This document shows positions 13,183 through 26,596 of a stretch of DNA of 64,000 nucleotides, piece after piece (positions within the stretch are counted from its first letter, which is position 1; each line of letters opens with the position of its first letter). The DNA is from an uncultured Acidobacteriota bacterium (GTDB lineage Bacteria; Acidobacteriota; UBA6911), in assembly GCA_963843575.1 (NCBI GenBank), contig CAWJKZ010000025.1, positions 128,001 through 192,000 on the forward strand, read 5' to 3'. The notes under the pieces were generated by a model. The model saw only the letters and a program-made list of their open reading frames with translations. It did no database searches and was not told where the DNA came from. Made by a program: the position numbers and the translations under genes.

Positions 13183-14798
13183 CTATACTTGCAGGACGCC
13201 GGTTTGGAACGGCTGTACGTCGGGATTGTGGGAGGCTGCGTCCAGGGCAAGAATGAGCGCGTCGCGGGTCTGGGTCGGCGAGATGATCTTGTCGAGCCAC
13301 AACCGTGCCGCGGCATAGCGCGGATCGAGGGCAGCATCGTACTGCGCGGCGATACTCCGGAAGATCTCTTCCCGTTGCTCGGGGGAGAGTTCCCGCCCCC
13401 TGGTTTCCTCCTGCCGAAGCCTGATGTCGGCGAGGGTCCTGGCCGCGGAGGCTCCGGCCATCACGGCATAGCGGGCAGTGGGCCAGGCAAACACGAAGCG
13501 CGGGTCATAGGCCTTGCCGCACAGCGCGTAGTGCCCCGCGCCGTAGCTCCCGCCCATGATGACGGTCACTTTGGGGACCACACTGTTGGCCACGACGTTG
13601 ACCATCTTGGCGCCGGACTTGATGATGCCGGAGACCTCGGCGTCCCTGCCGACCATGAAGCCGTTCACGTCGTGCAGGAATACAAGCGGCACGAGGTTCT
13701 GGTTGCAGTCCATGACGAAGCGGGCCGCCTTGTCAGCGGAGTCGGTGTAAATGACGCCACCAACCTCGATGGGCCTTCCGGGCGTGCGCGTGTGCGTTCT
13801 CTGGTTGGCGACTATGCCTACGGCCCAGCCCCCGATGCGGGCGTAACCACACACCAGGGTCCGGCCGAACTCGGCCTTGTATTCCGTGAACTCGCCGGCG
13901 TCGACGATGCGGGTGACGATGTCACGCACGTCGTACTCGCGCGAGGCATCCAGCGGCATCAAGTCGTACAGCTCTTCGGAGGGGCGAACCGGCGGGCGGG
14001 GCGCGGCGCGGTCGAAGGGGGGCGAGGGCGTGAACCCATCATGCCGGCGATCTCCCGGAGACGCCGGAGACAGGACCGATCGTCGGGCTCCCGAAAGTCG
14101 ATGGTGCCGCTCAGCGCCGCGTGCAGCGAGGCGCCGCCCAGCTCCTCGCTGCTCAGGTCTTGCCCTATGGCGGCTTTGACGAGCGAGGGCCCCGCGATGT
14201 AGAGGCCGCTCCCCTCGGTCATGAGGATCTTGTCGGACATGACCGGCAGGTAGGCGCCGCCGGCGACGCAGTTGCCCATGATTGCCGCGACCTGCGACAC
14301 GCCCATGGCCGACAGGCGTGCATTGTTTCGGAAGATGCGGCCGAAGTCGTCCTCGTCGGGGAATATCTCGTCCTGCAGCGGCAGAAACACCCCGGCGGAG
14401 TCGACGAGGTAGATCAGGGGCAGGCGGTTGTCCAGGGAGATGCGCTGCGCGCGCAGGACCTTTTTGACGGTCATGGGGAAGAAGGCCCCGGCCTTCACAG
14501 TGGCGTCGTTCGCCACGATCATGAACAGCCGTCCCTCGACGCGGCCGATGCCGGTGACCACGCCGGCGGCAGGGGCGCCCCCCCACTCTTCATACATGCC
14601 GAGGGCAGCGAATATCCCGAGCTCGAAGAAACTACTCCCCGGATCGACGAGGGCCTGTATGCGCTCGCGTGCTGTAAGGCGGTTCTTCGCGTGCTGTCTT
14701 GCGACGTTATCGGACCCGCCTCCCTGGAAGATCGCCTCCTCGTCGAGGTCAAAGGACCGTTGCAGCTCGAGCCAGAGTTCACGGTTGCGCGGGTTCAT
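13183..14798 (-). CDS. Acyl-CoA carboxylase carboxyltransferase (beta) subunit, MccB-like; frameshifted near 14035
   Basis: N-half (RLTARERI, ANDATVKAG, VDSAG, GNCVAGGAY, EELGGA) and C-half (GIVANQ, DKAARF, DVNGFMVG, GGSYGAGHYA, YAAARLW) lie in different frames; one base appears missing in a G run. Confidence 0.88.
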
Positions 14799-14812
14799 CC
14801 GGGGCGTCCTTA

Positions 14813-15052
14813 GGGCTCGCGCAGGAATAATTTCACATTTTGCTGACGGCTCCCGAGCCAACAGATCCTACAGCAAGCAACGATAGGAGATTGCAATTAA
14901 CGGAGCCGTCAGCCCTCCGGGGCGCGGCGGCGGGCGGGCATCTGCGGCGTTGCCGCTCCCCGACGATGTTACCACATCGCCTGCGTCGCGGAGCCTGGCA
15001 TCTGCCCGCCCGGCGCTCGCGCCAAAATGTGAACTCATTCTTGCGCGAACCC
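14813..15052. mobile_element. MITE (non-autonomous IS-like element), copy 1
   Basis: Imperfect ~30-bp terminal inverted repeats GGGCTCGCGCAGGAATAATTTCACATTTTG / CAAAATGTGAACTCATTCTTGCGCGAACCC, TTA on both flanks, near-identical inverted copy at 23073-23249. Confidence 0.85.
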
Positions 15053-15104: not shown

Positions 15105-17846
15105 TCAGAGGCGGGCCCGCGCAAGCGAAGTGCGCCCGGAGAGGCTGGCGACCACGGCGACGAGCTCCGCAGGCTCCACCGGCTTGGGGATGTGGACCTG
15201 AAATCCGGCGGTGAGCGCGCGCATCCGATCCTCCGACCGGGCATGGGCCGTCAGGGCGGCGGCCGGCACGCGGCCGCCTCGCTCGGCTTCGAGAGCGCGG
15301 AAACTGCGCATCAAGGCATAGCCGTCCTCGCCCGGCATTTCGATTTCGCTGACGAGCACGTCGAGGGCCCTCTCCCCGTTGAGGATCTCCAGCGCCTCTG
15401 ACGCAGAGCAGGCAACCATCACATGGGCGCCGCACTGCCGGAGTGCGACGGCGAGAATTTCGCGCGCGCCCTGCTCGTCCTCGACCAGGAGGACCCGGAC
15501 GCCTTCGAGCACCGGACCGATGGCGATCTCCGGGCCGCCGGCAGCCACCCGAACGCGAGGCGGCTCCTCGCCGGACGCGGACGCGGCGGCGACCAGCGGC
15601 AGCGAAACCGTGAAGGTCGCACCCTCCCCTTTCCCCGGACTCTCCACCCTGATGCTCCCGCCGTGCAGTTCCACGAGCTGGCTGACGATCGCCAGCCCTA
15701 ACCCAAGACCGCCGTGCTTGCGGGTGCTCGAGCTGTCCAGCTGGCGGAAGCGCTCGAATACGTGGGGCAGAAAATCGGGGCTGATCCCCATGCCGGTGTC
15801 GCTCACGATGATTTCCGCCGTCGCCCCGGCCTTTTCGAGGCGGACTTGCACACGGCCGTTCTTGGGAGTGAATTTGATGGCGTTCGTCAGCAGGTTCCAG
15901 ACAACCTGCTGGAGCCGGTCGGGGTCGCCCGAGATCAACCCCACGCCGGAATCGAGTACGCACCGTATCCGGATGCCCTTGCTCTCCGCGGCGAAGCTCA
16001 ACGCATCCACGGCCGCCTCGATGACCGACACGAGGTCGACCGAGCGCACGTCCAGGCGAAGCTTCCCGCTGATGATCCTGGATATGTCGAGCAAGTCCTC
16101 GATGAGCTGTGCCTGGACTCTTGCGTTCCGTTCGATGATTTCAAGCGCCCGACCTGCGTTGGCCTGGTCCAGACGACCGCTGTTGAGCATCGTGGCCCAG
16201 CCAAGGATCGAGTTCAGCGGGGTGCGCAGTTCGTGCGACACGGTGGCCAGAAACTCGTCCTTCGCACGGTTGGCCTCCTGCGCTTCCAGGAGCAGGCGCA
16301 CGTTCTCGACGGCCATCAGCCTGAACCGCTCCTCACTCTCGCGCAGGGCGTCCTCGGCCTGCTTGCGCTCGGTGATGTCGCTGCCCACCGCCAGGAAACA
16401 GGGCTCTCCGTCAAGCGTGATGCGCTCGACCGAGAGCAGAAAGACGCGCAGCTGACCGGATTTCCTGCGGAACTTCAGCTCGAGGTCGCGGGCCCGCACA
16501 TTGGAGCGGACAATCTCCGCCAGCCGGTCGTCGTCGCTGCCGTCCGCCCAGAGCCCGAATTGCCCCGGCACCCGGCCCAGAACCTCCTCCCGTTCGTAAC
16601 CGGTCGAGCGGAGGAACGCCTCGTTGACGTCCACGATCTCTCCCGTGCCCGATTTGCCAATCCACTTGGGAAGTGGGCTCGAGTTGAAGGCCTTGGAGAA
16701 ACGCTCCTCGGAGGCGCGCAGTGCATCTTCGGCTTTCTTGCGGTCTGTAACGTCCGTGCCGATGCCGATCATGCGAGACGGACGCCCTTCCGGACCCAGG
16801 AAGACCTGCCCCTTCCCCGCGAGCCATCGGGTGATCCCATCCGGCTTCATCACTCGAAACTCGACGTCGAGGGGAGATTTGTCCTTCAACGCCTCCCGGA
16901 TCGTCTCCGCGAGACGGTCACGGTCGTCGGGATGAACCACCTGCAGGTAGGATTCAAAGTTGCCGTCGAAGTGGTCGGCCGGGAAGCCCTGCAGGCTCTG
17001 GATATCTCCCGACCAGGTCAGCTTCCCCGTCGCGATGTTCCAGTCCCAAGTCCCCATCCGGCCCGCTTCCTGGGCCAGTCGCAGCCGCTCCTCGCTTTCG
17101 AAGAGCTCCTGCTCACTGCGCCTCCGCTGGCTAACGTCGCGAAAAACCAGGATGGCGCCCATAATCATCCCGCGGTCGTCGCGAATGGGCGCCGCCCCTT
17201 GATCGATCGGGACCTCCACGCCGGTGCGGGACAGGAGGATGGTGCGGCGCCCCAATCCGGCGACGCTCACGTTGTTCAGGACACAGTCTGCCGCGTTTTC
17301 GATGGGGGCGCGCGTATCCTCCTCGATGATCTTGAACACGTCGCGCACGGGGATGCCGACCGCCTCGTTGTTGCTCCAGCCCGTGAGTGTCTCGGCCACC
17401 GAGTTCAGCAACTGGACCACACCGCTGGAATTAGTCTCAATCACCGCGTCGCCGATACTCGAGATCGTCACCTCGAGCCAGCGCCGCTGGTCGCGCGCCC
17501 GGTCGGCCGCTCGGCGGGCCGAGGCGGACAGGAAACTGATCAGCCCTGCCACTGCCACGAAAAGCAGCAGCCGGACCAGACTGTCTGTCTGAAGGCCCTG
17601 GCGAGGGATCACCATCCAGACATGCCCAAGGACGGCCGCGCACCCCGCGAGAATAGCCGGACCCGTTCCCCCCAGGAACGCGCTCACCGTCACCGCGGCG
17701 ACGAGCAGGAGGAATGGAGTCCGCTCGTCGAGAACGGGCACGACGAACGTGATCCAAAGAGCCAGGGCGGTGGCGCACAGGGCGGCTGCGTATGCGCAAA
17801 CCCTGCGAAGGTTGGCAGGATCATTTCGGGATAAAACACCGGGCAT
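15105..17846 (-). CDS. Hybrid sensor histidine kinase (membrane domain, 3 PAS, HisKA, HATPase, receiver)
   Basis: N-terminal TM helices; three PAS/PAC repeats ending DVSQR, DVTDR, DITER; H-box FLATVSHELRTPL; NLLTNAIKFT, DTGMGI, GGLGLGLAI; C-terminal REC domain. Confidence 0.95.
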   Translation of the reverse strand: MPGVLSRNDPANLRRVCAYAAALCATALALWITFVVPVLDERTPFLLLVAAVTVSAFLGGTGPAILAGCAAVLGHVWMVIPRQGLQTDSLVRLLLFVAVAGLISFLSASARRAADRARDQRRWLEVTISSIGDAVIETNSSGVVQLLNSVAETLTGWSNNEAVGIPVRDVFKIIEEDTRAPIENAADCVLNNVSVAGLGRRTILLSRTGVEVPIDQGAAPIRDDRGMIMGAILVFRDVSQRRRSEQELFESEERLRLAQEAGRMGTWDWNIATGKLTWSGDIQSLQGFPADHFDGNFESYLQVVHPDDRDRLAETIREALKDKSPLDVEFRVMKPDGITRWLAGKGQVFLGPEGRPSRMIGIGTDVTDRKKAEDALRASEERFSKAFNSSPLPKWIGKSGTGEIVDVNEAFLRSTGYEREEVLGRVPGQFGLWADGSDDDRLAEIVRSNVRARDLELKFRRKSGQLRVFLLSVERITLDGEPCFLAVGSDITERKQAEDALRESEERFRLMAVENVRLLLEAQEANRAKDEFLATVSHELRTPLNSILGWATMLNSGRLDQANAGRALEIIERNARVQAQLIEDLLDISRIISGKLRLDVRSVDLVSVIEAAVDALSFAAESKGIRIRCVLDSGVGLISGDPDRLQQVVWNLLTNAIKFTPKNGRVQVRLEKAGATAEIIVSDTGMGISPDFLPHVFERFRQLDSSSTRKHGGLGLGLAIVSQLVELHGGSIRVESPGKGEGATFTVSLPLVAAASASGEEPPRVRVAAGGPEIAIGPVLEGVRVLLVEDEQGAREILAVALRQCGAHVMVACSASEALEILNGERALDVLVSEIEMPGEDGYALMRSFRALEAERGGRVPAAALTAHARSEDRMRALTAGFQVHIPKPVEPAELVAVVASLSGRTSLARARL

Positions 17847-18058
17847 CTGTACTTCCCTTTTCCGGCCGACCGTAGGGCTCCATCCTTCGGACGCGTACGA
17901 GCGCCGTCAAACGGAAGCTTTGGAGATGGTAAAGACTCGGGGGGCAGCGTGGACAATCTGAGGGAATGGTACTTCGTCCCGCACGGGACTTTCAAGTGGC
18001 CATGGGCCGCGGCGGCTCAGTCGGGCGCGGGACCCTGGTTCCCCACGCTTGTTGTTTG

Positions 18059-19480
18059 TCAGTGGGCTATCTTGGGCCAGTACCGCTCGTATTGGAAGTT
18101 GGGGGAGTTTTCGGGCGTGTGGCACCTCGGGCAGAACTCCTTCTTCACCGGGCGCCTGACTTGCTGGAGCACGCCGAGACCGGGATGTATTGTCTGCGGG
18201 CTGCGCGCGTGGTCCACTGACTCACCGTGGCAGGCCTCGCATTGCACACTCGCCAGCTTGGGCGTGCGCAGCATGTTGACAAAGCCGCGGTCGGAGCCGA
18301 ATCCCGTCACGTGGCAGGAAACGCAGTCCTGGTTAAACTGGTTTCCGGCGCGCACAAGCGTCTCGATCGCGCGGGCGTGGCGGCTTTTCTGCCAAACCGT
18401 ATAAGCCTTTTCATGGCAAATTTTGCAGGCATCCGCGCCGGCAAAGAGCGAGCGGGCCGTGACCTGAGGACTCTTGCGGGCCTCCTCCTCCTGCAGCCGC
18501 GACAAGTCGCGCCTGGCCTTGTCGACCACAGACACCAGTCCAGGCGCGTCGGGCACCAGCGACGGGAGAAGTATCATCTCGTTTTTCGAGGTCGTGATAC
18601 GTCCGCCACCATCCCAAGCGACCTCAAGAACCCCAAGCCCGATCCCGGAGTGTGCCGATTCCACGACAACAGTGTTGCCTAACCGGGGCAACTCCCGCCC
18701 GTCGCTCACGGAACTGCCGTTTATGATAACGTCCACCGCCGGGAATGCCTGCGCCAGCGCGGTCAGGTCCGGGTCCCGCATGCGCGCCAGAACCACGACC
18801 AGGTCGGCCCGCTTTTCTACCTCGGGCAGGACGCGCTTCAAGGCCGCCGCAGGATCCTGCATGGGAATCTCCCCGGCCGCCGACGCGTCCCCGGCGACAC
18901 CAAGCACCCCGACGCGGATCTCCACCCCACCCGACGCCGGCTGCAGCGCGAACACCGAGTAGGGGACCGTGGGAAACTGCAGCGACGACGTCCCCTGTAG
19001 GGCCGTGGCGATATACCGGCTGCGGAGCTCCGCCGGGATCAGTCCGAGCCCCTGAAGGCGTTCCAGGCGGCGGAGGTCCGGCTCGGTGGTATTGACCGCG
19101 TCCACGCCGAGCGCGTCGAAGGCCTCCAGAACCCAGCGGTTCGATGGATCGTCCAGGTTGTCGGTCTGGCGCAGGGCGTTTCCGGTTTCCACAACGAGCA
19201 CGGGAACATCTTGATGTTTGCGCTTCACGTCCGCTAGAAGCGTGGCCCGCCGGGCCACGCCGCCCATGGCGGGCTGCGTTCAGCCACAGGGGTCGAGGTT
19301 CCCCTTGAGGTCCCCGGCATAGGCGATCACGACCTTGCCGGGACGGCCCGGGTTGTCTCCAGCCGTGCCCGCACCCCCCTTCCAATGACCGTCCGACTGC
19401 GTGAACCGGAGATAGCCCATGAGAGCAGCGAAAGCCAGCGCAATCGCAAGGAATCCGTACACGGCAATTTTCGACTTCAT
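18059..19480 (-). CDS. Putative selenoprotein: membrane-anchored UshA-like domain plus tetraheme cytochrome c (c554-like); Sec at UGA 19280-19282
   Basis: ORFs 19280..19480 and 18059..19267 share a frame and are separated only by TGA: GNLDPCG-U-TQPAMGGVARR. Four CxxCH motifs (CKICH, CVSCH, CEACH, CPRCH); N-terminal hydrophobic anchor; SECIS-like stem downstream of the UGA. Confidence 0.85.
19240..19260 (-). promoter_or_regulatory. Putative bacterial SECIS hairpin
   Basis: mRNA GCGUGGCCC-GGC-GGGCCACGC, a perfect 9-bp stem starting 19 nt after the UGA, with a G-initiated apical loop 28 nt from the UGA. Confidence 0.7.
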
Positions 19481-19589
19481 ACCTGCCCCGGAGGAGTTTT
19501 CTGAATCGCGGGATTGTATAACGAACCGGGGGCCGAACCGGAGACTTTTGCGCCGGCACGAGCCCGATTGCCGTCGTCGCGTGAACCGG

Positions 19590-20553
19590 CTACAGGTCGG
19601 AGCCGTAGGCCCAGAGCGCGGGTACGCCCCCGGTATGCCAGAACAGGATCTGCTCGCCCCGGGCGATCACGCCGCGCCGGATCAGGTCGATCATGCCCGC
19701 AGCCGCCCGTCCGGTGTATACCGGGTCGAGCAGGATGCCTTCGGTGCGGGCGAACAAATGAATGGCCTCGCGTTCCGGCTCGCCCACGATGCCGTACCCG
19801 GCCCCGAGATGGTCGGCGTCGACACAGACATCCTGCGGCCGGAAATCGTGAGCCAGGCCCAGCAGGCGGGCGGTCCCCGCGGCAATTTCCACCACCATCC
19901 CCTGCAGCGCCGCCAGCCGGCTCGTCGATGCTGATTCCCAGCACCTGGCCACCGAACCCTGTCACCGCAACCCCCACCATCATGCCGGCGTGAGTTCCGC
20001 CGGAACTGGAAGCAAAGACGACCCGGTCGAACTCGACCGGCGCCTGTGCGGCTAACTCCTCCATCGCCAGGACGTAGCCCACTGCACCGAGAGGCGTCGA
20101 GCCGCCGAGCGGCACCCCGTAGGGCTTGGCACCCGAGGCCCGCTCCTCCTCCAGCACCACCTCCATTACCTCTTCCCGCGACCGGCTTCCCGACCAGCGC
20201 ACGTCGGCGCCCAGCAGCCGGTTCAACAGAAGGTTCCCTGTCTGCTCCCGTGGTGGATCGCCTCGCAGGACCAGGATGCAGCGCATGCCGCCGCGGGCGG
20301 CTGCCGCCGCCGTCTGCCGACAGTGATTGGACTGCGCCGCCCCGACCGTCACCAGCGTGTCCGCGGCCTGCGCAAGCGCGTCGCCGACCAGGAATTCGAG
20401 CTTGCGAGCCTTGTTTCCACCACCCGCCAGGCCGGTCATATCGTCGCGCTTGATGAAAATCCGCGGACCGTCCAGCGCCGACGAGAGATGCGGCAGCGCT
20501 TCAATGGGGGTCGGCAGATGGGCGAGCGCAAATCTCGGAATCGCCAGCTGCAT
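19590..20553 (-). CDS. dcyD: D-cysteine desulfhydrase family PLP enzyme; frameshifted near 19920
   Basis: PTPIE, IKRDD, GGNKARKLEFL, QSNHCR, SSSGGTHAG; the C-terminal frame has GAGYG, EGILLDPVYTGRA, FWHTGG. Thr at both diagnostic positions favours desulfhydrase over ACC deaminase. Confidence 0.85.
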
Positions 20554-20765: not shown

Positions 20766-20784
20766 TATGAAGTGGACTTTCATA
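20766..20784. promoter_or_regulatory. Candidate metal-regulator operator before feoB
   Basis: TATGAA-N7-TTCATA inverted repeat abutting the feoB start, downstream of TATAAT (20739-20744) in an AT-rich patch; a DtxR-family gene is in the same cluster. Confidence 0.35.
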
Positions 20785-23058
20785 TGAGTTCGGCCTTGAC
20801 CGAGCTGCAGTTGCCGGCCCGCGGGACCGCCAGGAAGATCGTTCTGGTCGGGAACCCGAACGTGGGCAAATCGGTGATCTTCAGGCTCTTGACCGGATCG
20901 TACGTAATGGTTTCTAACTTCCCGGGAACCACGGTCGAGATTTCGCGCGGGCGGCTTCAGCTGGGGGGCGTCCATTACGAGGTTGTGGACACGCCGGGGA
21001 TTTACAGCTGCGTTCCCCAATCGGAGGACGAGAAGGTCACCTGCGAAATCCTGTTGCGGGAGGCGCCCGACCTTGTGATCCAGGTGGCGGATGCGAAGAA
21101 CCTGCGACGGACGCTCCTCATCACGTCACAGCTGGTCGAGTTCGGTTTCCCGATAGTCCTTGTGTTGAACATGATGGACGAAGCCGAGGAGCGTGGGATC
21201 GCCATCGACGTGAACGGCCTGGCCGAGCTCTTTGCCGCCCCGGTGGTCGAGACCGTGGCGATCTACTCCAGGGGGCGCAAGAAGCTTTTGCAGGCGATAC
21301 AGGAAGCCCGTCGGCCGGTCAATCCGCTCCGGTTGACGGAGCTGCTGCCCAGGACAGGGGGCTCCGGCGGGGGATGGGAGGAGGGCATTCCCGGCCGCAC
21401 TCGCCGCGGAGTGGCTGGGGCTCGACGACCGGAGTTTCACGCAGCAGGTGGAGGCGTCGCTGGGGGAGCCTCTGGTAGGCGGGTTGCGGGAGGCCTGCGT
21501 CGCGCACAGGGCGATGCACCACCGGTCGCTTCCGGCTGAGATAGCGGACACCCGGGGCCGGTTTTTGGACCAGGCGGTCCACCGGCTGCGGTCGCGGCGG
21601 GAAGTTCGGTTTTCGGACGCGTCGGCCGCGCGCTCGCGTCTTTGGCTGGGACTGCTGGTAGCCGGCCTGGTGCTGTTCGGCTGGAACGAGGTGGGCGGCC
21701 TGTTCGGCGCGTGGACGCCGTTCGGCGCCGCATACGGGAGCGCGGCGGCCGCTCTCGACCGCCTGCCCGGTCCGGCCTTCCTGCGTGAGCTCCTGGTAGG
21801 AGATCCGGCTGCGAGCCGCTACCGTTACGGACTCATCCCGGAGTTGATACACCTGCTCATGTTCGTCCTCCCGGTGGTCGTGCCGTTTGGGGTTCTGCTG
21901 GCCCGCGACCGCAGCTTCGCCCATGAAATCGGGATCCTCACCCGGCGACCGGCGACCGGGATCCCGCTCCTGATGGTCGTGCTGGTCTTGGTGTTCGAGT
22001 TCGTCGGGTACACCGGGGCGCAAGCGCTCGTGGGGCTGCTGGAAAAGACGCTATTCGGCAACTATCTCGTCCCCGCGCTCCGGGAGGTGGCGCCCCGGGG
22101 TTTTGTGGGGGATCTCCTGTTAGGGCGGTATGGCGTGGTGTCGATGGGGCTGACGTACGCGCTGGCCATCGTGCTGCCGGTTGTCGCGACCTTTTTTATC
22201 GCCTTCGGGCTGCTCGAGGACAGCGGTTATCTGCCCCGCCTCTCCATCCTGTCGGACCGGATCATGCGTTCGATGGGACTTAACGGGAAGGCGACGCTTC
22301 CGATGGTGCTGGGCCTGGGCTGCTGCACCATGGCGACGATGACGACCCGGATCCTGAACTCGCCCAAGGAGCGTCTGATCGCGACGCTCCTGCTTGCGCT
22401 CGGCATCCCATGCTCGGCACAGCTCGGCGTGATCCTCGGGATGTCGGCCGCGTTCTCGTCCAAGGCTACGCTCGTGGTCGTCGGGGTGGTCTTGTCCCAG
22501 CTCTTCCTGGTTGGCTTTCTGGCGTCGCGCCTCGTGCGCGGCAAGTGCAGCGAGTTTATCTTCGAGATCCCGCCGATCCGCGTGCCGCAGTTGCGGAACG
22601 TGGTGCTGAAGACAGGCCACAGGATCCGCTGGTATCTCCAGGAGGCGGTCCCGCTTTTCATCTATGGCACGCTGGCGCTGTTCGTCCTCGACAGGGTTCG
22701 TGTGCGGGGAAGCAGCCTCTTGATTTGGATTCAAAAGGCGCTGGAGCCGGTGATCAGCGGTATCCTGCACCTGCCGCCCGAGGCTGCGGGCGTGTTCGTC
22801 CTGGGATTTCTCCGGAGGGATTACGGAGCCGCCGGGTTGTTCGACATGTCGGCGAAGGGGCTCCTGTCGGGCCAGCAGGCGGTGGTCAGCCTTATCGTAA
22901 TCACCTTGTTCGTCCCCTGCCTTGCGAGCTTTCTGGTTATCGTCAAAGAACACGGCCCTAAACGTGCCTTGGCGATCACGGGCTTCATCGTTCCATTTGC
23001 GATTGGCGTCGGCGGGGTCGTGAGCTGGATCCTGAGGACGTTCAACGTGCAGTTCTGA
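20784..23058 (+). CDS. feoB: Ferrous iron transporter FeoB; frameshifted near 21390
   Basis: G-domain GNPNVGKS, NFPGTT, DTPG, NMMD; membrane domain LEDSGYLPR, GLGC, IPCSAQL, FIFEIP, LFVPCLAS. Extra C in a C run. Confidence 0.92.
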
Positions 23059-23072
23059 CCAGGTCGTCCTTA

Positions 23073-23249
23073 GGGTTCGCGCCAGAATAGGTTCACATTT
23101 TGGCGCGAGCGCCGGGCGGGCAGATGCAAGGCGCCGCGACGCAGGCGATGTGGGGACATCGTCGAGGAGCGGCAACGCCGCATCTGCCCGCCCGCCGCCG
23201 CGCCCCGGAGGGCTGACGGCTCCGTTATGAAATTATTCTCGCGCGAGCC
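23073..23249. mobile_element. MITE copy 2 (inverted relative to copy 1, shorter)
   Basis: Reverse complement aligns to 14813-15052 but lacks a ~62-bp internal segment; TTA on both flanks. Confidence 0.85.
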
Positions 23250-23267
23250 TTAGATCGGAGACAAACT

Positions 23268-23930
23268 ATGCAGGTGACCGAAGAGCGTGTCCCGGAAGAA
23301 ATCGCCGAGGTCCTCGAGACCATGTGGACGCTCGAGGAACGTCGCGAGGTGTCGTTCGCCAACCTGGAGAGGGACGCCGCCATACAGGTGGGTGCGGAGT
23401 TGCTGGAAGCCTTACGCGTGCGTCAGCTCATCGCGCTGGGAGAGGACGGGCCGAAGCTCCTGCCCCAGGGCCGGAAAATCGCCGAGCAGATCATCCGCAG
23501 GCACCGTCTTGCCGAGAGGCTGGTGTGCGACGTTCTCGGGTCGCACGTGGACGACAGCGAAGCGGCCGCCTGCGAATTCGAGCACCTGATCGCCGAAGGG
23601 ATCACGAGTTCCATATGCACCTTGCTGGGACACCCGCGCTTCTGCCCCCACAATCGCCCGATACCCGAGGGAGACTGCTGCAGGGCGGCGACCGAGGCGC
23701 TCAAACCGATCGTCGTCTCGTGCGACCAGCTGGGGATCGGGCAATCCGGGCGCGTCGCCTACCTCGCCACCCGGGAACACTCGCGCCTGCTGCGGCTCTC
23801 CGCGCTCGGGATCACCCCTGGCGTTCAGCTGAAGCTGCTGCAGCAGTGGCCGAGCTTTGTCGTGCAGTGCGACGAGACCGAGATTGCGCTGGAGGGCGAA
23901 GTGGCCCGGTGCATCTACCTCTGGCACTGA
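23268..23930 (+). CDS. DtxR/MntR-family metal-dependent regulator with C-terminal FeoA domain
   Basis: IIRRHRLAERL, ACEFEH, LGHPRFCPHNRPIP; SH3-like FeoA tail (RLSALGITPG). Confidence 0.92.
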   Translation: MQVTEERVPEEIAEVLETMWTLEERREVSFANLERDAAIQVGAELLEALRVRQLIALGEDGPKLLPQGRKIAEQIIRRHRLAERLVCDVLGSHVDDSEAAACEFEHLIAEGITSSICTLLGHPRFCPHNRPIPEGDCCRAATEALKPIVVSCDQLGIGQSGRVAYLATREHSRLLRLSALGITPGVQLKLLQQWPSFVVQCDETEIALEGEVARCIYLWH

Positions 23931-23965
23931 TACCTTGACGTGAGTGTCGACGCACCCCACATCCG

Positions 23966-26596
23966 CTACAACTTCACGTTGCGCAGGCGGAGCGCGTTTC
24001 CGATCACCGACACCGAGCTGAAAGTCATGGCCGCGCTGGCAATCATGGGGCTCAGGAGGACGCCGAGCACCGGGTAGAGGACCCCGGCCGCCACCGGGAT
24101 ACCAAGGGCGTTGTACACAAACGCGAAAAAGAGGTTCTGACGGATGTTGCGCATGGTGGCGCGGCTGAGGAGATAAGCACGCGCGATCCCGCGCAGGTCG
24201 CCCCGCACGAGCGTCACGCCGGCGCTCTGGATCGCGACGTCGGTGCCGGTACCCATCGCGATGCCGACGTCCGCCTGGGCCAGCGCCGGTGCGTCGTTGA
24301 TCCCGTCCCCGGCCATCGCGACGATCCGGCCTGTCGACTGCAGCCGTTTTATCGCCTCGGCTTTCTGGTGCGGCAGCACCTCGGCAATCACCTCGTCGAT
24401 GCCGAGTTTGCGCGCCACGATGTCGGCCGTGGTTCGACCGTCCCCCGTAAGCATGACGAGGCGGGTTCCCTGCCCGTGGAGGAGGCGGATCGCCTCGAGG
24501 GTCGACGGTTTGATCGGGTCCGAGATGCCGAGCAAGCCTGCGGGGGCGCCATCGACGGCCAGCAGCACGACGGTCTCGCCCTGCTGCCGCAGTCGTTCGA
24601 CCCGGCCGTCCCGGTCCGGCCAGTCGATGGACAGCTCCTGCATCAGCGCGCGGTTGCCGAGGGCGACAGGGCGGCCCGCGACGCTCCCGGTCACGCCCTT
24701 GCCTGTATTCGAACGGAATCCGCTCGACTCGGTGAGTTTGATCCCGCGCTCCGCCGCGATCCCGACGATGGCCGCGGCCAGCGGGTGCTCGCTGCCGCGT
24801 TCCAGGCTCGCGGCGAAGCCCAGCACGTCGACCTCGCTCCAGGGATCGAGCGCCGCAACCGACGAGACGCGCGGTTTCCCCACCGTCAGGGTGCCCGTCT
24901 TGTCGACCACGACCGTGTCGACTCTTTCGAGGGTTTCGAGCGCCTCCGCGTTCTTGATGAGCACGCCGGAGGTCGCTCCCCGCCCTGTGCCTACCATGAT
25001 GGACATCGGTGTGGCCAGGCCGAGGGCACATGGGCAGGCGATGATCAGCACGGAGACGGAACTGAGGAGCGCGTAGGCGAAGCGCGGTTCGGGGCCAAAC
25101 ACCATCCACGCGGCGAAGGTCGACACCGAGATCAGGACGACCGCAGGGACGAAATACCCGGCCACGCGGTCGGCCAGCCGCTGTATGGGCGCACGGCTGC
25201 GCTGCGCCTCGCTGACGAGCCGGACAATCCGCGCCACGAGGGTGTCGGCGCCGACGCGTTCGGCGCGCATGACTAAGCTGCCGGTGCCGTTGACCGTTCC
25301 GCCCGTTATCCGCGACCGGCTGGTCTTCTCGACCGGGATCGGCTCGCCCGTCAGCATCGACTCGTCCACCGAGCTCGCCCCTTCGACGACCACGCCGTCA
25401 ACGGGGATTTTCTCGCCGGGACGCACGCGCAGGATGTCGCCGGGGTGCACCTGGTCGAGCGGCACGTCCCCTTCGCTTCCATCCGGGCGCAGAAGACGAG
25501 CCGTCGGGGGCACGAGCCCGAGCAGGGCGCGCAGCGCGCTGCTGGTGCGGCCTCGTGCCCGCAACTCCAGGACTTGCCCCAGCAAAACCAGCGTCGTGAT
25601 CACGGCTGCCGCTTCGAAATAAACCTCCGGCATCCCGCCGTGCCCCAGCAGCGATTGAGGCAGAAACCCGGCGAACAGCGTGGCCACCACGCTGTACCCG
25701 TAGGCGGTTCCCGTACCGATGGCGATCAGGGTGAACATGTTGAGGCTGCGGTTGACGACGGAGGTCCATCCGCGCACAAAAAAAGGCCAGCCGCACCAGA
25801 GCACCACCGGGGTGGACAGGGCAAATTCCACCCACCTGAGGCCGCGCGCGGACAGCAGCGAGTGCAGCCGCAGCCCCGGAAACATCCCCGCCATCGTTAT
25901 GACGAGCACCGGGAGTGAAAGCACGGCGCTGACATAGAACCGGCGCGCCAGGTCGGCCAGCTCGGGATTTGCCTCCTCTCCCGGCGTCACGAGACGCGGC
26001 TCCAGGGCCATCCCGCACTTCGGGCAGGAACCAGGCTGGTCGCGGACAATCTCCGGGTGCATCGGACAGGTCCACCGGGTTCTGGCCACGACCGGCAACT
26101 CCGGCTCCAGGGCCATCCCGCACTTCGGGCACGCCCCGGGCCCCTCCTGCCGCACCTCCTCGTCCATCGGGCAGACGTAGGCCGTGGCTCGCGCTTCGAC
26201 GGGCGCCCGGGCCGAGCGCGGGGCTGGCGGCGGCGAGGGAAGCACCTGAAACAAACCGCCCATGTGACGGGCCGGGTCGGCCTTGAATTTGTCGAGGCAG
26301 GAGTGGCTGCAGAAGTAATAGAGCCTCCCGGCGTGTTCGTACATCCCTGCCGCCTTCGACGGCTCGACGCTCATGCCGCAGACCGGATCCTTCGCCTGCG
26401 CGGGAGCTCCGGCGCCGGAGACCGACGGCCGAGGGGAGAGGTATCTCGCAGGATCCGCCACGAATCGCTCCCGGCACCGGACGTTGCAGAAATAATAAGT
26501 GGCCCCGCCATGTTCGGCCGTACCCGCCGACTTCGAGGGATCCACCGTCATGCCGCACACGGGGTCCAACACCCGTTCCGCTTTTCCCTGGCTCAT
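23966..26596 (-). CDS. copA: Cu(I)-translocating P1B-type ATPase with two YHS and two CPM(H/D) metal-binding domains
   Basis: DPVCGM x2, CPMD and [33 protein letters not shown] and MTFSS signatures. Confidence 0.95.

Follow-up and report, generated by a model that had tools for sequence, protein, structure and literature searches.

The DNA analysed here, a stretch of 64 000 nucleotides from an uncultured Acidobacteriota bacterium (the window), carries on its minus strand two open reading frames (ORFs) that lie in one frame and are separated by an in-frame TGA codon. The upstream ORF (19480..19280, 66 amino acids) ends with GDLKGNLDPCG, followed by the TGA at 19282-19280; the downstream ORF (19267..18059, 402 amino acids) starts with MGGVARR. 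The spacer between them is TGA ACG CAG CCC GCC, which bears out the first-pass annotation of this DNA, where the common frame and the short spacer had been noted. When the TGA is read as selenocysteine (Sec, U), a single protein of 473 residues results, with the motif D-P-C-G-U at residues 63-67, and the gene is co-linear with full-length homologues of 475-493 amino acids that have cysteine instead of Sec. We put the probability that 19480..18059 is one gene, encoding a 473-residue selenoprotein of the UshA-like CxU (PCGU) family, at about 0.88.

The features of the gene are collected in Table 1. The predicted structure has a Lys-flanked hydrophobic helix at residues 2-28 and a low-confidence linker at residues 29-40; both the residue pattern and the model suggest that the protein is exported via an N-terminal signal or anchor. 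The architecture that had been claimed for the readthrough product, an export helix followed by a UshA-like domain with the C-G-U motif and by four CxxCH motifs, is upheld by sequence, profiles and model alike.

Table 1. Features of the UshA-like selenoprotein gene (positions in the window).
Feature	Positions	Strand	Remarks
Whole selenoprotein gene	18059-19480	minus	473 codons plus terminal TGA stop (18059-18061); single frame if TGA-67 is read through
ATG start (19478-19480) and predicted N-terminal export signal/membrane anchor, residues 1-28	19397-19480	minus	MKSK, then ~20 hydrophobic residues
Cys65 codon TGT of the C-G-U motif	19286-19288	minus	Cys in 123/123 distinct family sequences
In-frame TGA, selenocysteine codon 67 (strongly supported)	19280-19282	minus	Same column TGA or Cys codon in homologues
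SECIS-type hairpin, loop GGC at 19249-19251	19239-19261	minus	Fits bSECIS constraints; covariation in 61 Sec-form sequences
UshA/5'-nucleotidase-fold domain, residues ~48-335	18476-19339	minus	NF041198 and NF049981 matches, PDB profile, Foldseek
Cytochrome c554-like tetraheme module, residues ~345-473	18062-18448	minus	PF13435; PDB 1bvb
Heme motif 1, CKICH, C352-H356	18413-18427	minus	Invariant in family
Heme motif 2, CVSCH, C386-H390	18311-18325	minus	Invariant in family
Heme motif 3, CEACH, C414-H418	18227-18241	minus	Invariant in family
Heme motif 4, CPRCH, C450-H454	18119-18133	minus	Invariant in family

TGA and cysteine codons alternate at position 67

Across 124 homologous loci, column 67 is TGA in 77 and a Cys codon in 47; the motif search for these loci demanded C-x-[U/C], yet there was no locus without the motif. 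The first set of 47 loci (L019-L065), which takes in the window's own locus, has TGA in 37 and TGC in 10. The second set of 77 further loci (L076-L152) comes from named GTDB contigs, with L073-L075 left out as they are the same places as L020-L022, and has TGA in 40, TGT in 18 and TGC in 19. Searching protein collections with the readthrough protein gave 67 matches, 32 of them at E < 1e-100. Six of these 32 span the whole query (475-493 amino acids); the other 26 span 57-85%, and most of them begin at the M-G-G immediately past the UGA. All nine full-length homologues that were aligned have Cys at column 67 (PCGC in six, PCNC in two and PCDC in one). Homologues had been expected to carry Cys or UGA at residue 67, and this is what we find in 124/124 loci and 9/9 full-length proteins. 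Outside the heme motifs, the invariant or near-invariant positions over 123 distinct sequences include C65, G66 (122/123), [U/C]67, G73, G74 and G100. Decoding of UGA-67 as selenocysteine is strongly supported.

The hairpin downstream of the UGA

Just 3' of the UGA lies the hairpin GCGUGGCCC-GGC-GGGCCACGC, a candidate selenocysteine insertion sequence (SECIS), with nine Watson-Crick pairs and one G-U pair. Its 3-nt loop begins with GG and starts 28 nt past the A of the UGA, and its energy is -19.6 kcal/mol. The first-pass annotation had described nine perfect pairs and a G-led loop 28 nt after the UGA; the G-U pair is an addition to an otherwise accurate description. The model of bacterial SECIS (bSECIS) elements, as set out in a 2026 review, has an apical loop of 3-9 nt on an upper stem of 4-16 bp, a G within the first two loop positions, a UGA-loop distance between 16 and 37 nt and an energy no higher than -7.5 kcal/mol (PMC13188914). 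The window hairpin lies within all four published bSECIS constraints.

Hairpins of this type accompany the TGA in other genomes. Among the first set's 37 Sec forms, 34 have as their best hairpin a G-led triloop located precisely 28 nt (22 cases) or 21 nt (12 cases) past the UGA; of the other three, two carry a hairpin of equal length at 28 nt. Hairpins that fit the model and have seven or more perfect pairs were counted in 31/37 Sec forms versus 2/10 Cys forms of the first set, and in 26/40 versus 5/37 of the second. A Mann-Whitney test of Sec against Cys hairpins in the first set gave p = 0.0009, a value that exaggerates the difference, because relatives are not independent. These counts, which are specific to position and shape, replaced a comparison of whole-segment folding energies between Sec and Cys forms; the latter was uninformative (mean of -23.9 kcal/mol for Cys forms versus -19.7 kcal/mol) because the Cys forms examined are more G+C-rich.

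The stem also covaries. In an alignment (A3) of 61 distinct Sec-form sequences with the 28-nt geometry, 83.2% of the cells of the 9-pair stem are paired, against 73.0 ± 0.9% in shuffles, and none of 500 shuffles reaches the observed value; control stems slid by 1-3 columns are 30-48% paired. Double-sided changes account for 58 cells versus 21.5 ± 3.5 in shuffles. Pair 30-36, for instance, is CG in 30 sequences, AU in 14, UA in eight, GC in two and something else in seven, and pair 27-39 is GC in 36, CG in six, GU in six, UA in four, UG in one and otherwise in eight. The covarying columns fall on the third letters of codons for Leu, Ala and Arg in the conserved peptide G-L-A-R-R-A, and the combinations are synonymous (Leu CUN with Ala GCN; Ala GCN with Arg CGN); thus, protein conservation does not account for the covariation. 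L023 (G007:C12:111040-112401, motif PCPC), of all Cys forms the one closest to the window's clade, encodes the same peptide as CGU CGU GCA and has no such stem.

A genus-level clade (L027-L038) has instead the hairpin ACAGCUC-GGN-GGGCUGU, which sits on the codons for Q-L-G-G-L, 21 nt after the UGA. Across clades it is the distance and shape of the hairpin relative to the UGA that are kept, not its position in the protein, and between L027-L038 and the window's clade the SECIS hairpin has moved relative to the protein alignment. We regard the dataset as a clean example of a SECIS hairpin that is kept by covariation at synonymous sites and decays after replacement of Sec by Cys.

A scan of 18000-19600 against Rfam at E values up to 10 gave no match to a SECIS family. 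The highest-ranking match was a serC leader at 19201-19252 (minus strand), just 3' of the SECIS hairpin and within coding sequence; with 24.1 bits against a gathering threshold of 35 (E = 0.0096), we take this match as chance.

Family assignment

The readthrough protein matches the NCBIfam model NF041198 ('UshA_like_PCGU', UshA-like (seleno)protein) at E = 1.2e-71 and 241.9 bits. It shares with this family the place of the P-C-G-U motif, a 5'-nucleotidase-like N-terminal domain, a multiheme C-terminal part and the alternation of Sec and Cys; it differs in scoring below the curated equivalog cut-off of 275 and in matching the profile in two stretches (positions 22-271 and 348-519), with positions 272-347 unmatched. 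Ten relatives score 222-335 bits in a continuous range, five of the ten reaching 275 or more, and the four nearest relatives of the window protein (222-248 bits) also lie below that value. The continuity of these scores argues for a divergent branch under the threshold and not for a different architecture. Since profile positions 348-519 fall on residues 296-465, the heme region, the fusion of a UshA-like domain, P-C-G-U and hemes already defines the curated family. The protein is therefore a divergent branch of a computationally known selenoprotein family and not a new family.

The family also appears in published surveys. A table in a 2008 ocean survey has an entry 'COG0737, UshA-like' with motif CxU and the values 76, 20 and 92 in three count columns, and UshA-like proteins are named there among the major families of 51 previously characterised ones (PMC2398784). 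A 2022 review tabulates a 'UshA-like protein' with motif CxU (PMC9312934), and the 2026 review cited above lists 'UshA-like protein, NF041198, CxU' (PMC13188914). The novelty implied by the first-pass annotation was thus overrated, as UshA-like CxU/PCGU proteins with hemes are both curated and surveyed. A second model, NF049981 (UshA-like (seleno)protein family 2), also describes a UshA-like selenoprotein and matches residues 51-141 weakly; the 47.2 bits fall well short of the cut-off of 140, that family's motif is CxxU rather than CxU, and its profile has 262 positions.

In public collections the window protein is the 402-amino-acid call P0002, and its same-genus relative is likewise cut short (P0003). 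The window protein and most of its close relatives hence stand publicly as 402-amino-acid 'cytochromes' that have lost the export signal, the first β strand and the putative active-site motif. Because this branch lies under the NF041198 cut-off, annotation based on that cut-off would not restore the selenocysteine.

Selenocysteine machinery and alternative readings of the TGA

A search for selA, selB, selC and selD had been proposed as a check. The source genome assembly (27 contigs, 88.3% complete, 3.3% contaminated) contains an intact selB (373 bits; cut-off 242); selC, the tRNA-Sec with anticodon tca, is present in one copy, and selD (G000:C13:704799-705723) scores above its cut-off, with an in-frame TGA of its own and one frameshift. 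Three of the four genes were thus found, whereas selA is present only in fragments. Four genomes with family relatives gave a divided picture: G003 and G007 have an intact selA, G001 and G008 only fragments of it. G007, whose protein is a Cys form (PCPC), retains an intact selA; Sec can therefore be lost from this protein without loss of the machinery.

Genes of the window that are split by frameshifts include a pyridoxal phosphate (PLP)-dependent DcyD/ACC-deaminase-like enzyme (19590-20553, minus strand), FeoB (20772-23058, plus strand) and a carboxyl transferase (13186-14867, minus strand). Together with the breaks in selA and selD, these splits point to an indel-rich assembly rather than to pseudogenes. 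An earlier remark that the other breaks in the window are frameshifts, while the TGA break is in frame, is borne out.

Several points weigh against the reading of the locus as a selenoprotein gene. Not far from the end of a contig (G000:C8:2469-3523), selA is broken over ~1 kb into five or more fragments that lie in differing frames and all score below cut-off, so the machinery may not be intact; we tentatively read these breaks as assembly indels, because other genes of the window are broken by frameshifts likewise. For the TGA codon itself the check covers one short contig of another run. All sequencing runs are stored as contigs and none holds more than 0.30 of the sampled words; only run X4, which belongs to another study, covers the TGA, by a single 151-nt contig at depth 3 that lies on 19208-19358 with two differing letters, a difference being listed at 19299 and none at 19280-19282, which is weak support for the codon. 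In this G+C-rich DNA, local folding by itself does not exceed chance (z = -1.27; 21 of 200 shuffles fold at least as well). Two adjacent ORFs share a frame in one case out of three by chance; since local fold and shared frame are each within chance, the significance rests on the comparison with other genomes. The hairpin overlaps the conserved A-R-R-A codons, so that part of its conservation is protein conservation. Some Cys forms retain the hairpin, such as L043, with nine perfect pairs and the loop GCA 28 nt after its TGC; as the nearest relative of L043 is a Sec form (L053), this looks like a fossil SECIS left by a recent Sec-to-Cys replacement. L119 is a further Cys form that was grouped with L043 as retaining a hairpin at the SECIS position. 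To these points we add the shortfall against the NF041198 cut-off. Literature searches found no experimental or expression study of the gene or of any family member, and among the neighbourhoods compared there is no conserved partner gene hinting at a substrate; gene context therefore gives no functional hint.

A nonsense mutation or an assembly error, which would make the gene a pseudogene or the TGA a mis-called Cys or Trp codon, could draw on the many broken genes of this assembly and on the single contig of depth 3 over the codon. We consider it highly improbable: the errors elsewhere are frameshifts and not substitutions, TGA occupies the exact column in 77 of the 124 loci with Cys in the rest, and the hairpin co-occurs with the TGA. 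Moreover, a genome of the same genus (G001) has the TGA together with the same hairpin as the window, and the sequence 3' of the TGA is still conserved, at 80% identity. That the locus holds two genes, a 66-residue membrane peptide and a 402-residue cytochrome starting at the ATG at 19267, as in the public calls P0002 and P0003 and as an ATG four codons past the TGA might suggest, is scarcely credible, since the 402-residue product would have neither a signal peptide, though c-type hemes are attached outside the cytoplasm, nor the first strand of the nucleotidase fold, the Cys homologues are single co-linear proteins of 475-493 residues, the Met at 19267 is a conserved residue preceding G-G, and short forms are the usual output of gene callers at a UGA. 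Reassignment of TGA to Trp or Gly was ruled out because the gene itself ends in TGA and homologues carry Cys at column 67.

The nucleotidase-fold domain and the tetraheme module

The structure model, for which an alignment of 40 rows was used, reaches a mean pLDDT of 90.3 and a pTM of 0.83. Foldseek against the PDB returned 5'-nucleotidases first (3ivd, CD73 and Escherichia coli UshA; E 2e-18 to 3e-16, TM ~ 0.5), with SoxB at rank 44, and the alignment profile matches a 5'-nucleotidase over profile positions 35-323 (E = 4.2e-21). The N-terminal domain has the fold of UshA, CD73 and SoxB, which are dimetal phosphoesterases of the calcineurin-like type, and the helix start G-G-V-A-R-R-A-T is shared. 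It differs from these enzymes at the metal site. The motifs D-V-H, A-G-D, G-N-H-E-F-D, G-H-S and G-G-H of PDB 5h7w align to D-L-K, T-G-N, N-T-T-E-P-D, A-R-M and N-G-S of the window protein; D-x-H, G-D, G-N-H-E, H and G-H in 5h7w are what we take to be the dimetal ligands of 5'-nucleotidases. Five of the six aligned ligand or catalytic positions are replaced, and the dimetal site of the window protein is probably dead. Over the 123 family sequences the metal-site columns vary, the D57 column being Asp in 48 and the next ligand column His in 30. Loci such as L076, L080 and L082, labelled Blastocatellia, have D-I-H-G, with the D-x-H of metallophosphoesterases, right before C-G-U, where the window's clade has D-L-K-G. 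Judged from these columns, the state of the metal site differs between clades of the family. Unlike in UshA and CD73, the place of the C-terminal substrate-binding domain of the nucleotidases is taken by the heme module in the window protein.

This module matches Pfam PF13435 (Cytochrome_C554) at 65 bits against a gathering threshold of 20.8, and profile positions 330-440 match cytochrome c554 (1bvb) in the PDB at E = 4.3e-21. All four CxxCH motifs, at residues 352, 386, 414 and 450, are invariant over the 123 family sequences, and the source genome has three matches above cut-off to cytochrome c assembly genes; we infer that four c-type hemes are attached in the periplasm. The further conserved histidines over the same sequences are H368, H424 (122) and H473 (120). 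With only three of these for four hemes, one heme is left without an invariant distal His. Cytochrome c554 itself has one five-coordinate heme. The Nitrosomonas protein (1bvb/1ft5) has the same four-heme module and motif order, but acts as an electron carrier on its own and has neither Sec nor a catalytic domain. The top profile match in the PDB, the uncharacterised multiheme protein 6i5b, was set aside as a structural homologue of the whole protein because it matches the heme part alone.

Possible function

We speculate that the invariant Cys65-Gly-Sec67 loop is the catalytic centre. Cys65 and Sec67 would cycle between a selenol/thiol state and a selenenylsulfide or a substrate-selenium adduct, and the oxidized C-G-U loop would be re-reduced by electrons relayed through the four hemes. 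The protein might then work in the periplasm and reduce S-S or Se-S substrates or selenium oxyanions, polysulfide or selenite for example. Such a chalcogen (S-S, Se-S or selenite) reductase function, whether it proceeds by the selenenylsulfide cycle or by chemistry at an open heme, is put forward tentatively and by analogy. Equally tentative is the evolutionary counterpart, in which the C-G-U loop would have taken over the emptied metal pocket of a 5'-nucleotidase and, together with the c554-like wire, would form a second, independently evolved combination of selenol and multiheme reductase for polysulfide, selenite or related chalcogen compounds.

The analogue we have in mind is MccSep of Geobacter sulfurreducens (PDB 9wt8), identified in 2026 as the polysulfide reductase of sulfur respiration (PMC13510729). 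According to that report this selenoenzyme is periplasmic, carries five hemes and reduces polysulfide and, to a lesser degree, selenite; its Sec is essential and a Cys ligates the active heme (PMC13510729). Both proteins, the window protein by prediction, are periplasmic and combine c-type hemes with one selenocysteine; the essential cysteine of MccSep would have its counterpart in Cys65. MccSep differs in having five hemes, no domain of nucleotidase fold and its Sec in another context. Homology to the window protein is limited to one heme motif (E = 5.8e-4 over 30 residues), and the model of the MccSep/ExtKL multiheme selenoproteins, NF040886, aligns to only 33 residues with 16.5 bits, its cut-off being 250. 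By these comparisons MccSep is an analogue only and not homologous to the window protein.

The same precedent can be turned towards a different chemistry of a genuine selenoprotein. Cys65 or Sec67 could serve as the sixth ligand of a heme or lie above a five-coordinate one, with the reaction taking place on iron as in MccSep, TsdA or SoxAX. The heme without an invariant distal His (only H368, H424 and H473 being conserved) would fit, as would the five-coordinate heme of cytochrome c554, the closest heme module, and the Cys-ligated active heme and essential Sec reported for MccSep. Against this, the C-x-U/C-x-C spacing is typical of a redox pair, and Cys65 and Sec67 belong to the other domain, ~285 residues from the first heme motif; we find a heme-ligand role doubtful. 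An N-terminal domain that is still an active metal-dependent phosphoesterase, or a SoxB-like thiosulfohydrolase, with Sec as a mere accessory, is very unlikely. The Foldseek matches to 5'-nucleotidases, weak SoxB matches (23.5 bits; profile E = 8.6e-12) and the D-x-H motif retained in some clades speak for it, but the window protein has lost five of six ligand or catalytic positions, the metal columns are unconserved over 123 sequences in which C-G-[U/C] is invariant, and the SoxB score is far below the TIGR04486 cut-off of 550.

Should the C-G-U reductase proposal be right, a widespread enzyme would have escaped notice systematically, since gene calling ends the protein at the UGA. The precedent of MccSep, the spread of the family and its invariant C-G-[U/C] make the family an obvious one to consider next for a part in sulfur or selenium cycling.

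Distribution and gene neighbourhood

The family is widespread, also beyond the phylum, and its sole invariant feature outside the heme motifs is C-G-[U/C]. Matches turned up in 28 of 61 related genomes searched at the DNA level. Of 401 genomes sampled from the phylum, 56 contained relatives; this count takes in the unpublished genome G201, which was not used otherwise. In the GTDB species set at least 546 candidate stretches were confirmed by tblastn. The nearest relatives are labelled uncultured Acidobacteriota; more distant ones carry the labels Blastocatellia, Terriglobia, Acidimicrobiia, Gammaproteobacteria, Nitrospirota and others.

Synteny around the gene is seen within the genus only. 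Only G001 and G008 have the PLP-dependent (DcyD/ACC-deaminase-like) gene upstream, and the other neighbours vary by genome (carboxyl transferase, PD40 propeller, DciA, alcohol dehydrogenase (ADH), methyltransferase, ABC transporter). A scan of 17700-19800 for promoters and terminators gave nothing useful. Directly downstream of the gene, at 15105-17846 (minus strand), the window has a hybrid sensor of 913 amino acids with PAS, histidine-kinase and receiver domains; G008 and G003 have a carboxyl transferase at this place. On the other side the gene adjoins an iron/metal cluster (20772-26596), made up of the frameshifted FeoB, a DtxR-type repressor with a FeoA domain (23268-23930, plus strand) and a heavy-metal P-type ATPase with YHS and HMBD domains (23966-26596, minus strand).

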